Both the position numbers and the translations under genes were made by a program. Below are positions 12,737 to 23,370 of a stretch of DNA of 23,370 nt, in pieces (the first letter of the stretch is position 1; each line of letters opens with the position of its first letter). The stretch comes from a virus (taxonomy: Duplodnaviria > Heunggongvirae > Uroviricota > Caudoviricetes), in the IMG/VR virus record IMGVR_UViG_2529293239_000006, positions 1-23,370 of that record; one strand, 5' to 3'. The notes below the pieces were generated by a model. The model worked only from the letters and a program-made list of their open reading frames with translations, was not told where the DNA came from and made no database searches.

Positions 12737-13371
12737 TTACGCCACTGCAATCTTCAGCAGTTTGATGGCCTGCGAATCGACCAGCATGCCGCCGGTGCGT
12801 TTGGTGGTATAAAAACCGACAAACGGTTTATTGGTGTACGGGTCACGCAGAATGCGGGTGCCGATACGGTCAACGATGGTGTAACCCCGTTTGAAGTTAC
12901 CAAATGCAATGGCTTTCGCATCAGCGGCGATATCCGGCATCTGTTCGTTTTCAGCGATACCGTAACCCGCCAGAGAGGACGGCTGCCCCAGCTCCAGCCC
13001 CGGACGCCACAGATAGTTACCCTCGCTGTCTTTCAGCAGACGGATGGCAAACAGGCTATTGTTGTTCATCATGAACTTCGCGCCGGTGCGGTGTGCCTTA
13101 CGCAGCGTGTAAATCAGTTTGATAATGGCGTCTGCGGTCACCGCCGTCGCGTCGCCGGATACAATATGCTGAAGTTTGCCGAACGCCCGGACCTTATCGG
13201 TTTCATCCGTGGATTCATTCGCCAGGAACCCTTTCGGCTTCTTGGTACCATCGCCGGTGGTAAAGGCAATTTCTTCCTGTTCGGCAAATTCGGTTGCCAG
13301 CTCGCTGTTGATCCATGCTTCCACGTTGAAAAAGGCATCATCCAGCATTTTCTGGGTGGCCTGCGGGTTAC
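12737..13371 (-). pseudogene. HK97-family major capsid protein, C-terminal half, severed by IS629
   Basis: ORF 12737-13348 stays open upstream to the IS boundary at 13371/13372 (NPQATQKMLDDAFFNVEAWIN...). It is in frame with the N-terminal half at 21065-21638 once the shared GTA target duplication is collapsed. Confidence 0.85.
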
Positions 13372-13425
13372 TGAACCGCCCCGGGAATCCTGGAGACTAA
13401 ACTCCCTGAGAAAGAGGTAAACAGG

Positions 13426-13752
13426 ATGACTAAAAATACTCGTTTTTCCCCCGAAGTCCGTCAGAGGGCGATTCGTATGGTTCTGGAAAGTCAGGGCGAA
13501 TATGACTCACAGTGGGCGGCAATTTGTTCCATTGCCCCAAAGATTGGCTGTACACCGGAGACTCTGCGTGTCTGGGTACGCCAGCATGAGCGGGATACCG
13601 GAGGCGGTGATGGCGGGCTCACCACCGCTGAACGTCAGCGTCTGAAAGAGCTGGAACGTGAAAATCGTGAACTGCGCCGCAGTAACGATATCCTTCGCCA
13701 GGCTTCCGCTTATTTTGCGAAGGCGGAGTTCGACCGCCTCTGGAAAAAGTGA
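13426..13752 (+). CDS. IS629-like transposase OrfA
   Basis: 108-aa HTH protein with a leucine-zipper-like C-terminus; start 54 nt from the IS end. Confidence 0.85.
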
Positions 13753-14639
13753 TGCCACTGCTGGATAAGCTGCGTAAGCTGTACGGGGTCGGACCGGTAT
13801 GCAGTGAACTACATATTGCCCCGTCAACGTATTACCACTGTCAGCAACAGCGACATCATCCTGATAAACGCAGTGCCCGTGCGCAGCGCGATGACTGGCT
13901 GAAGAAAGAGATACTGCGCGTATACGATGGGAATCATCAGGTATACGGTGTGCGTAAAGTCTGGCGTCAGTTGTTACGGGAAGGTATCAGAGTGGCCAGA
14001 TGCACTGTGGCACGTCTCATGGCGGTTATGGGACTTGCCGGTGTTCTCCGGGGTAAAAAGGTCCGTACGACCATCAGCCGGAAAGCCGTTGCCGCAGGCG
14101 ACCGCGTAAACCGTCAGTTCGTGGCAGAACGACCTGACCAGCTGTGGGTGGCTGATTTTACTTACGTCAGCACATGGCAGGGCTTCGTCTATGTGGCGTT
14201 CATTATTGATGTGTTTGCCGGATACATCGTGGGGTGGCGGGTCTCATCGTCCATGGAAACGACATTCGTGCTGGATGCTCTGGAGCAGGCGTTATGGGCC
14301 CGTCGACCGTCCGGCACGGTCCATCACAGTGATAAAGGTTCTCAGTATGTATCGCTGGCCTACACACAGCGGCTTAAGGAAGCCGGATTACTGGCATCAA
14401 CAGGAAGTACAGGCGACTCGTATGACAACGCGATGGCGGAGAGCATCAATGGTCTTTACAAAGCGGAGGTAATACACCGTAAGAGCTGGAAAAACCGTGC
14501 AGAAGTGGAACTGGCCACACTCACGTGGGTGGACTGGTATAATAATCGACGATTGCTGGAAAGGCTGGGCCACATCCCTCCGGCAGAAGCAGAAAAAGCT
14601 TATTATGCTTCTATCGGAAACGATGATCTGGCAGCCTGA
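13749..14639 (+). CDS. IS629-like transposase OrfB (DDE integrase core)
   Basis: 296-aa ORF in the -1 frame relative to orfA, overlapping its stop; AAAAAG run at 13744-13749 is the likely frameshift site for the OrfAB fusion. Confidence 0.85.
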
Positions 14640-14681
14640 GTTCACAGATAAAACACTCTCCAGGAAACCCGGGGCGGCTCA

Positions 14682-15029
14682 GTTACCGTGACGGAACTCC
14701 ACCTTGCAGGAGCTGGCACTAACTGTAGTCTGAGTAGATAAAGACGGAGTAAGAGCAGCCACAGGTTCTTTCGGCTCATCCGGCGTTATCTCCACAGGTA
14801 ATAATTCAACGCCAGTGTCAGAAGAGGTTGTTACCGGAAGACGCCGCGATATGCGCCCTTCGTTCTGCCAGAGCCTGAGCCATTTGAACAGCAGGTTATC
14901 ATTGATATCGTGTTCCCGGGCAATACGGGCAACAGAGGCTCCTGGTTGTGAAGCCAGTTTAACCATTTGAAGTTTAAACTCATTTGAAAATGATCTGCGG
15001 GGTTCTGCAGATAATGCTTTCTGTTCCAT
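14682..15029 (-). pseudogene. IS66-family orfA (TnpA), 5' part
   Basis: 116 codons ending ...VEFRHGN at the IS629 junction; the missing 23 codons (MTLENPSPELLTVLIRELTGRGR) are at 22952-23020 in frame. Confidence 0.7.
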
Positions 15030-15115
15030 AACAGGTGTCCACTAGTTGAAAAGGTGGGCACCTACGTTACCAATACAGGCTTAATGGCTACATACGGCGG
15101 TCAGTTTACGCTTAC
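14682..15115 (-). mobile_element. IS66-family element, 5' fragment (left end plus orfA 5' part), separated from the rest of the element
   Basis: Minus-strand sequence from 15115 reads GTAAGCGTAAACTGACC, a typical IS66-family terminus. orfA (15029-14682; MEQKALSAEPRRSFSNEFKLQMVK...) runs into the IS629 end, whose sequence supplies the stop codon. Its 3' continuation is at 22949. Confidence 0.7.
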
Positions 15116-21050: not shown

Positions 21051-21064
21051 TCAGGAGAAATACG

Positions 21065-21638
21065 ATGGCGGTAGATATTAAAGATGTCGAACAGGTCGCG
21101 CAGGAGCTGCAGCAGAAGTTTGACGACTTCAAAGCAAAGAACGACAAGCGCGTGGATGCGATTGAGCAGGAAAAAGGCAAGCTTGCCGGGCAGGTGGAAA
21201 CCCTGAACGGGAAACTCAGCGAGCTGGAAAACCTCAAAAGCGATCTTGAAAAAGAGCTGCTTGAGCTGAAACGTCCGGCAGGTGGTGCGCAAAATAAACT
21301 GGCCACCGAGCATAAAGAAGCGTTTGTGGGCTTCCTGCGTAAAGGCCGTGGAGATGGTCTGCGCGATCTGGAGCGCAAGGCATTACAGGTGGGCACCGAT
21401 GAAGACGGCGGCTATGCCGTGCCGGAAGCACTGGATCGCAACATTCTCACCCTGCTGAAAGATGAAGTGGTGATGCGCCAGGAAGCCTCGGTGATCACCG
21501 TTGGTGGTTCCGACTACAAAAAACTGGTGAATCTGGGCGGCACGGCTTCCGGATGGGTTGGCGAGACTGACGCGCGCTCCCAGACTGCCACCTCAAAACT
21601 GGGCCTGATTGAACCTTTCATGGGGGAAATCTACGGTA
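21065..21638 (+). pseudogene. HK97-family major capsid protein, N-terminal half, severed by IS629
   Basis: Good RBS (AGGAG) before the ATG at 21065; coiled-coil scaffolding-like N-terminal delta domain followed by the capsid core. The frame is cut at 21638 by the IS629 end; the continuation is at 13371-12737 on the other strand. Confidence 0.85.
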
Positions 21639-21680
21639 TGAACCGCCCCGGGTTTCCTGGAGAGTGTTTTATCTGTGAAC

Positions 21681-22571
21681 TCAGGCTGCCAGATCATCGT
21701 TTCCGATGGAAGCATAATAAGCTTTTTCTGCTTCTGCCGGAGGGATGTGGCCCAGCCTTTCCAGCAATCGTCGATTATTATACCAGTCCACCCACGTGAG
21801 TGTGGCCAGTTCCACTTCTGCACGGTTTTTCCAGCTCTTACGGTGTATTACCTCCGCTTTGTAAAGACCATTGATGCTCTCCGCCATCGCGTTGTCATAC
21901 GAGTCGCCTGTACTTCCTGTTGATGCCAGTAATCCGGCTTCCTTAAGCCGCTGTGTGTAGGCCAGCGATACATACTGAGAACCTTTATCACTGTGATGGA
22001 CCGTGCCGGACGGTCGACGGGCCCATAACGCCTGCTCCAGAGCATCCAGCACGAATGTCGTTTCCATGGACGATGAGACCCGCCACCCCACGATGTATCC
22101 GGCAAACACATCAATAATGAACGCCACATAGACGAAGCCCTGCCATGTGCTGACGTAAGTAAAATCAGCCACCCACAGCTGGTCAGGTCGTTCTGCCACG
22201 AACTGACGGTTTACGCGGTCGCCTGCGGCAACGGCTTTCCGGCTGATGGTCGTACGGACCTTTTTACCCCGGAGAACACCGGCAAGTCCCATAACCGCCA
22301 TGAGACGTGCCACAGTGCATCTGGCCACTCTGATACCTTCCCGTAACAACTGACGCCAGACTTTACGCACACCGTATACCTGATGATTCCCATCGTATAC
22401 GCGCAGTATCTCTTTCTTCAGCCAGTCATCGCGCTGCGCACGGGCACTGCGTTTATCAGGATGATGTCGCTGTTGCTGACAGTGGTAATACGTTGACGGG
22501 GCAATATGTAGTTCACTGCATACCGGTCCGACCCCGTACAGCTTACGCAGCTTATCCAGCAGTGGCATCAC
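21681..22571 (-). CDS. IS629-like transposase OrfB (copy 2)
   Basis: Identical protein to the copy-1 OrfB. Confidence 0.85.
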
Positions 22572-22894
22572 TTTTTCCAGAGGCGGTCGAACTCCGCCTT
22601 CGCAAAATAAGCGGAAGCCTGGCGAAGGATATCGTTACTGCGGCGCAGTTCACGATTTTCACGTTCCAGCTCTTTCAGACGCTGACGTTCAGCGGTGGTG
22701 AGCCCGCCATCACCGCCTCCGGTATCCCGCTCATGCTGGCGTACCCAGACACGCAGAGTCTCCGGTGTACAGCCAATCTTTGGGGCAATGGAACAAATTG
22801 CCGCCCACTGTGAGTCATATTCGCCCTGACTTTCCAGAACCATACGAATCGCCCTCTGACGGACTTCGGGGGAAAAACGAGTATTTTTAGTCAT
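22568..22894 (-). CDS. IS629-like transposase OrfA (copy 2)
   Basis: Identical protein to the copy-1 OrfA. Confidence 0.85.
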
Positions 22895-22948
22895 CCTGTT
22901 TACCTCTTTCTCAGGAAGTTTAGTCTCCAGGATTCCCGGGGCGGTTCA

Positions 22949-23370
22949 AACATGACGCTGGAAAATCCTTCACCAGAGCTGCTCACAGTGTTGATCCGTG
23001 AACTGACCGGGAGGGGACGATGATCTCACTCCCGTCAGGCACCCGCATCTGGCTCGTTGCTGGGATAACCGATATGCGTAAGTCTTTCAACGGGCTGGGT
23101 GAACAGGTACAGCATGTGCTGAATGATAATCCCTTCTCCGGTCACCTGTTCATCTTCCGTGGCCGACGGGGTGACATGATTAAAATCCTGTGGGCTGATG
23201 CTGATGGTCTGTGCCTGTTCACCAGACGCCTGGAGGAAGGCCAGTTTATCTGGCCTGCTGTGCGTGACGGCAAGGTATCCATTACCCGCTCGCAACTGGC
23301 AATGCTCCTCGATAAGCTGGACTGGCGTCAGCCAAAAACATCCCGCCTTAATGCACTGACAATGTTGTAA
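22949..23370 (+). mobile_element. IS66-family element, downstream part (orfA 3' end plus orfB); continues beyond the window
   Basis: 22949-23023 encodes the last 23 codons of orfA in frame with the 14682-15029 fragment; orfB starts with an ATGA overlap at 23020. Confidence 0.75.
23020..23370 (+). CDS. IS66-family accessory protein TnpB (orf2)
   Basis: 116-aa translation MISLPSGTRIWLVAGITDMRKSFNGLGEQVQHVLNDNPFSGHLFIFRGRRGD... is typical IS66 orfB; stop TAA at the window end. Confidence 0.85.
   Translation: MISLPSGTRIWLVAGITDMRKSFNGLGEQVQHVLNDNPFSGHLFIFRGRRGDMIKILWADADGLCLFTRRLEEGQFIWPAVRDGKVSITRSQLAMLLDKLDWRQPKTSRLNALTML

Follow-up and report, generated by a model that had tools for sequence, protein, structure and literature searches.

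A 7-kb Inversion Bounded by Two IS629 Copies Separates the Halves of a Prophage Capsid Gene and of an IS66-Family tnpA Gene in Shigella

The window analysed here is a stretch of 23,370 nt from a caudoviricete record (IMGVR_UViG_2529293239_000006, positions 1 to 23,370), which carries a defective prophage, the dinB and yafP genes, an IS66-family element and two copies of the insertion sequence (IS) IS629. In the window as it stands, the major capsid gene consists of two pieces located on opposite strands, and the tnpA gene (orfA) of the IS66-family element is divided in the same manner. The question raised by this locus is how the two genes came to be broken and whether the segment between the IS629 copies was turned around in the process. 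According to the results given below, the segment is inverted, and two independent insertions of IS629, followed by homologous recombination between the inverted copies, are very probably the cause.

Over 20.6 kb, the window shows 100% identity to the draft Shigella contig AKMW01000021.1 (GCA_000267985.1). For comparison, an intact Escherichia coli prophage (L001) was used as the reference, together with the locus of E. coli UID2309220027 (L018), five Logan contigs from a sister lineage (L020-L024), and the locus (L019) of Shigella flexneri serotype 6 strain 64-5500, the complete chromosome of which is available as CP026811.1 (PMC9455713). Searches were also performed against 5426 complete E. 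coli genomes, a set that does not contain Shigella. Since the source of the window is Shigella, the coverage obtained in this set was low, with a maximum of 67% for the whole window and 56% for the inverted segment.

The two IS629 copies and the genes they interrupt

The repeat search revealed a single inverted pair in the window (13372-14681 and 21639-22948), with arms of 1310 nt and 6957 nt between them. The original prediction of two inverted 1310-bp IS629-like copies was thus correct in position and length, and base-by-base comparison refined it: the copies are 99.8% identical and differ by three mismatches, found at window positions 13404, 14612 and 14678, which correspond to IS positions 33, 1241 and 1307. 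Both open reading frames (ORFs) of IS629 fit the IS3-family transposase model; they overlap, in the manner typical of this family with its HTH orfA and DDE/rve orfB, encode 108 and 296 aa, and cover the NCBIfam transpos_IS3 profile at positions 1-86 and 93-369, with a score of 310 bits for orfB. The ends of the 1310-bp copies, TGAACCGCCCCGGGAATCCTGGAGA and TGAACCGCCCCGGGTTTCCTGGAGA, match at 23 of 25 positions and form imperfect terminal inverted repeats, left (IRL) and right (IRR). Compared with E. coli elements that carry the annotation IS3 family or IS1203, the two copies show ~97-98% identity; IS1203 is an isoform of IS629 (PMC3271280).

Copy 1 is preceded by GGGTTAC and followed by GTTACCG, and copy 2 is located between CTACGGTA and AACATGACG. 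Reading of these flanks demonstrated that a direct 3-bp duplication is absent at either copy, and that the adjoining triplets pair across the copies as reverse complements, TAC with GTA and GTT with AAC, in agreement with what had been predicted. The chance of two such 3-bp cross matches is ~(1/64)^2. Each of TAC and AAC occurs twice, at different IS629 copies, and only once in the intact capsid and intact tnpA genes, respectively. The target duplication produced on insertion of IS629 has been reported to be 3-4 bp (PMC3271280).

An inverted IS pair that brackets 7 kb of cargo is also the layout of composite transposons such as Tn5 or Tn10, in which case IS629-dinB/yafP-IS629 would have moved and inserted as a unit. 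However, the outer flanks, TAC and AAC, form no direct duplication and lie in unrelated genes, namely the capsid gene and IS66 tnpA; the missing halves of both split genes are found inside the supposed cargo; and the cargo genes dinB-yafP-rtcB' continue the chromosomal backbone present just outside. A composite transposon is refuted by this flank analysis and was rejected, its probability being close to nil.

To reverse the segment in silico, positions 1-13371 were joined to the reverse complement of 14682-21638 and to 22949-end, with one copy of each triplet retained. Across the first joint this yields a capsid ORF of 401 aa (...GEIYG-NPQATQ...), which scores 383 bits on the HK97 major-capsid model TIGR01554 and spans it in full (profile positions 2-385 of 385), equals in length the annotated capsid protein of the intact reference prophage, and is identical at 400 of 401 residues, without gaps, to the intact capsid protein encoded by the sister-lineage contigs. 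A 208-bp query centred on this joint found a match in one piece, at coverage of at least 80%, in 1030 of the 5426 complete E. coli genomes, with 396 records at least 99% identical.

Across the second joint, an IS66 orfA of 139 aa is obtained (...VEFRHGN-MTLENPSPELL...), the stop codon of which overlaps the orfB start codon as ATGA at 23020-23023. In the unreversed window, the truncated tnpA product is 116 aa long, and its stop falls in the terminal TGA of IS629. The restored TnpA scores 87.7 bits on NF047595 (cut-off 74), and TnpB scores 124 bits on PF05717; in strain 64-5500, tnpC (530 aa) follows tnpB, giving a tnpA-tnpB-tnpC organisation. The restored protein is identical across the joint to TnpA of E. 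coli FDAARGOS_943 (128/128), and differs at a single residue (138/139) from the 139-aa TnpAs encoded directly upstream of an identical 116-aa TnpB in other Shigella-type genomes. In a DNA alignment to an intact IS66 element, the two window halves overlap exactly on AAC. Collapsing the duplications therefore restores both reading frames, including the ATGA overlap, as had been proposed from the window alone.

The same reversal also brings the neighbouring sequences into order. Window positions 26-13371 and 20606-21638 match the intact prophage L001 in opposite orientations. The dinB and yafP genes lie on the strand opposite to that of the window's tnpB. In 64-5500, tnpB, tnpC, 'rtcB and prfH are found on the strand of the window's tnpB and are followed by pepD, gpt and frsA, in the backbone order of E. 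coli K-12; the opposite strand carries dinB, yafP and the 5' remnant of rtcB. In the E. coli locus L018, dinB-yafP-rtcB'-IS66-'rtcB-prfH are all co-oriented. Re-inversion restores the backbone order dinB-yafP-rtcB-prfH-pepD-gpt. Based on the opposite orientations relative to L001 and the backbone order in L019 and L018, re-inversion puts prophage, IS66 element and chromosomal backbone back in order simultaneously. The collinearity on both sides thus substantiates the predicted inversion of the dinB-yafP segment, 14682-21638.

The empty capsid site and an independent genome

The five sister-lineage contigs begin inside the same end of an IS911-like element that is present in the window, encode an identical 141-aa truncated prohead protease, and have an identical junction between IS911 and protease'. 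They also carry a split sheath gene (142 + 337 aa). Their capsid gene is unbroken and has only one TAC where the insertion lies in the window. These contigs represent the pre-insertion state of the capsid gene in the same, already rearranged context; a comparison with relatives lacking the inversion had been called for in the original prediction.

A locus of this kind may also be produced by assembly, if the IS629 repeats are connected to flanks that are not their own. The source of the window, AKMW01000021.1, is a draft contig, IS629 is multi-copy in CP026811.1, the only complete genome in which its copies were inspected, and almost every short-read contig of the lineage ends at this element. 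Against this, CP026811.1 belongs to a different strain and exhibits the same four junctions in the same linkage, with 99.97% identity to the window. Strain 64-5500 has differences of its own as well (L013/L003): its IS911-like element contains a further IS629, at window 19594/19595, and the 5' part of its capsid gene has a 252-bp deletion (window 21387-21638), which directly adjoins the IRR of IS629 copy 2. These differences show CP026811.1 to be an independent sequence. The concern about the IS629 flanks is thereby answered, and an assembly artefact, ruled out by this genome, is highly improbable. It also follows that the inversion predates the split of the source strain of the window and 64-5500.

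The 203-aa C-terminal capsid fragment is recorded in 149 assembly blocks, and the capsid insertion is therefore fixed in a lineage. The look-up of the 244-aa fusion of the N-terminal capsid part to IS629 returned one match only, a contig of 1.4 kb.

Recombination or transposition as the cause of the flip

In the favoured explanation, IS629 would have inserted twice, in opposite orientations, in an ancestor of the S. flexneri serotype-6-type lineage. One insertion would have struck the major capsid gene of a prophage that was defective already, with duplication of TAC, and the other would have struck tnpA of an ISSfl3-like IS66 element located in rtcB next to dinB-yafP, with duplication of AAC. 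Homologous (RecA-type) recombination between the inverted 1.3-kb copies would then have flipped the intervening 6957 bp. This sequence of events builds on the observed structure, with its cross-paired duplications, the restored genes and backbone, the empty capsid site and the independent complete genome. We infer the order of the two insertions, as well as a flip made by recombination rather than by the transposase.

The nucleotide differences between the copies bear on the last point. Alignment of nine copies of IS629, taken from 64-5500, AKMW01 and the window, gave C33, C1241 and T1307 as the local consensus. T1241 is a recent change, which only the window and its source contig have. Copy 2 alone carries T33, in the IRL part next to the 3' end of tnpA. 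C1307 is private to the IS629 copies whose IRR abuts the 5' part of tnpA, where it changes the terminal TGAACC to TGAGCC (window 14678); it was found at every tnpA'-IS629 junction seen, that is, at 12 loci in 10 independent contigs, including two gut-metagenome contigs. A reciprocal crossover would give a copy 1 composed of the IRL part of the capsid-resident element and the IRR part of the IS66-resident one, and a copy 2 of the converse composition. T33 and C1307 both map to the IS66-resident parent, so that the variant pattern fits such a crossover. As a separate observation, C1307 lies 4 nt from the IS629 terminus and, judging from this position, might impair the use of that end by the transposase.

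Alternatively, a single resident IS629 may have undergone replicative intramolecular transposition into the second site, so that copying and flipping took place together. The final topology and the duplication pattern of such a one-step duplicative inversion are formally identical to those of two insertions followed by recombination, and intramolecular transposition typically yields IS-adjacent deletions such as that of 252 bp found in 64-5500 at the same IS629 end. On the other hand, the copies should have been identical at the start, yet they differ at three sites, with private variants split between them. With the IS66-resident copy as the donor, C1307 would be expected next to the N-terminal capsid part, whereas the assemblies, checked base by base, have T there. 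One insertion with the other site empty in the same lineage would also run counter to a one-step event, and the empty capsid site of L020-L024 goes part of the way to such a state. Furthermore, IS3-family elements transpose by copy-out/paste-in via a circular intermediate, which is not known to give duplicative inversions. A one-step origin is thus very unlikely, also in the version in which the transposase made the inversion and the three differences came in afterwards, through mutation or gene conversion with other IS629 copies as the source. If true, such an inversion would be unusual for an element that moves by copy-out/paste-in. The variant pattern favours recombination over one-step transposase-mediated inversion, although a strict separation of the two is not possible.

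Several points weigh against two insertions followed by recombination. A genome with both insertions and no inversion was not found among the 5426 complete E. coli genomes and the Shigella-type loci, and the intermediate is thus a postulated one. The reconstructed capsid::IS629 query detected the capsid insertion in 0 of the 5426 genomes. The 117 apparent tnpA::IS629 hits were rejected: they consist of separately aligned pieces (tnpA, tnpB and an IS3-family element), and in the two that were inspected IS629 is located elsewhere in IS66. A TnpB look-up revealed many intact ISSfl3-like copies and no un-inverted tnpA::IS629 among 10 IS66 loci of three Shigella-type assemblies; Shigella short-read contigs end at IS629. 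The variant argument has two informative sites only, and T33 could have arisen after the inversion. Finally, 64-5500 has a second tnpA'-IS629 junction with C1307, in an IS66 remnant beside the aerobactin genes iucABCD-iutA (L004 10340-11700). The IRL end of this IS629 abuts tnpC, and the 3' part of tnpA, tnpB and the 5' part of tnpC are deleted. It shares a 1-nt deletion at approximately position 72 with a neighbouring IS629, which suggests a recombinant copy. Given this second junction, the history of IS66::IS629 is more complex than one local insertion.

The decayed surroundings and known rearrangements

Profile searches upheld the earlier identification of dinB, the GNAT gene yafP, TnpB_IS66 and the IS3-family transposases. 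In addition to what had been noted before, the inverted segment contains a 5' remnant of rtcB, Dit-like and TMP_3 tail remnants, a complete IS911-like element and a 5'-truncated prohead protease gene (Table 1).

Table 1. Coordinates of the features found in the window.
Feature	Position	Strand	Remarks
Defective prophage, tail and head-completion genes	1..12736	-	Baseplate, DNA-circularization protein, tape measure, tube, sheath, terminator, connectors
Major capsid gene, 3' part, residues ~192-401	12737..13371	-	Ends at duplicated TAC, 13369-13371
IS629 copy 1	13372..14681	+	IRL to IRR; orfA 13426-13752, orfB 13749-14639; C33, T1241, C1307
IS66-family (ISSfl3-like) left end and tnpA/orfA 5' part	14682..15117	-	Duplicated GTT (AAC on gene strand), 14682-14684
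rtcB-family gene, 5' remnant	15118..15528	-	Weak Pfam RtcB match; interrupted by IS66 element
yafP, GNAT	15563..16015	-	Profile match
dinB, DNA polymerase IV	16012..17076	-	543 bits
Dit-like protein, second cryptic phage remnant next to dinB	17123..17914	-	Profile match
TMP_3 tape-measure fragment, second cryptic phage remnant	18051..19382	-	Profile match
IS911-like IS3-family element, complete	19357..20605	+	1249 bp; 27-nt imperfect terminal repeats beginning TGAAGTGG
Prohead protease gene, 3' part only	20606..21050	+	~206 nt of 5' end missing
Major capsid gene, 5' part, residues 1-191	21065..21638	+	Ends at duplicated GTA, 21636-21638
IS629 copy 2	21639..22948	-	IRR to IRL on + strand; T33, C1241, T1307
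IS66 tnpA/orfA 3' end and tnpB/orfB (23020-23370)	22949..23370	+	Duplicated AAC, 22949-22951; tnpA stop 23021-23023

The tail and head-completion genes are collinear, at 97-99.5% identity, with the E. coli prophages found beside ssrA in L001. Compared with the intact E. coli prophage, the sheath gene (9058-10554, minus strand) has a nonsense codon (CAG to TAG) at codon 143, window 10126-10128. The portal and terminase genes, located upstream of the protease gene in L001, are absent from this locus. The IS911-like element, presumably IS911 itself to judge by its ends, removes ~206 nt from the 5' end of the protease gene and connects what is left of that gene to the TMP_3 fragment, which belongs to another cryptic phage. 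This junction is an older IS-mediated rearrangement that brought the prophage head-tail module next to dinB. Because relatives with an intact capsid gene, L020-L024, share both the protease truncation and the sheath nonsense codon, the prophage was dead before the capsid insertion, and the splitting of the capsid gene was not the cause of its death. The original statement that the prophage cannot make capsid is thus true, but it does not hold as an explanation of how the prophage was lost.

The dinB gene overlaps yafP directly, with no yafN-yafO between them (window 15563-17122), and the best E. coli matches to this region reach only ~89-95% identity. Just upstream of dinB is a sequence resembling a LexA box (CTGTATATTTATACAT, other strand), which travels with the inverted segment.

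The ISSfl3-like element breaks the rtcB-family gene between yafP and prfH (window 15060-15528); the rest of rtcB is found beyond IS66 in 64-5500, and homology to the E. coli backbone begins at window 15118. In E. coli UID2309220027, an unrelated ISEc23-type IS66-family element interrupts the same rtcB gene in the same orientation (L018 2196-5875). It was considered as the ancestral empty state for the second IS629 insertion and rejected, being a different element with 79.5% identity, inserted ~238 bp away.

The locus illustrates how Shigella chromosomes are scrambled and degraded as IS elements expand: a stretch of 10 kb contains an inversion, two insertions of IS629, a junction mediated by IS911 and an insertion of IS66 in rtcB. 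No function is implied, and the inversion is a fixed and probably neutral scar in a decaying region. For S. flexneri serotype-6-type strains it may provide a lineage marker, and for structural-variant detection software a test case. It also calls for caution in annotation, as the halves of the capsid and tnpA genes lie on opposite strands, 8 kb apart.

A description of this specific inversion was not found in the literature. IS-mediated inversions have been documented in S. flexneri, where those distinguishing strains 8401 and 301 are bounded by IS629 and IS1, and some have been attributed to IS629 (PMC1550401). As in those strains, the flipped segment here lies between inverted copies of one and the same IS, within the same host group, and IS629 is one of the elements named; in contrast to them, the inversion in the window is small (7 kb), local and base-resolved, with both duplications and both split genes recoverable. 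Prophages of E. coli O157:H7 commonly carry insertional scars of IS629 (PMC3271280), and these share with the present case the element, the 3-bp target duplication and the disruption of prophage genes. The difference is that here the host is Shigella and the direct duplications were separated onto different copies by a later inversion. The inverted copies, the inverted interval and the split target duplications also resemble the duplicative inversions generated by IS1, IS26 and Tn3-type elements. Those elements, however, transpose replicatively through cointegrates, whereas IS629 is a copy-out/paste-in element of the IS3 family, and the differences between its two copies oppose a one-step event. 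With no new mechanism, kind of element or function involved, the locus is an unusually tidy, base-resolved case of a known process.

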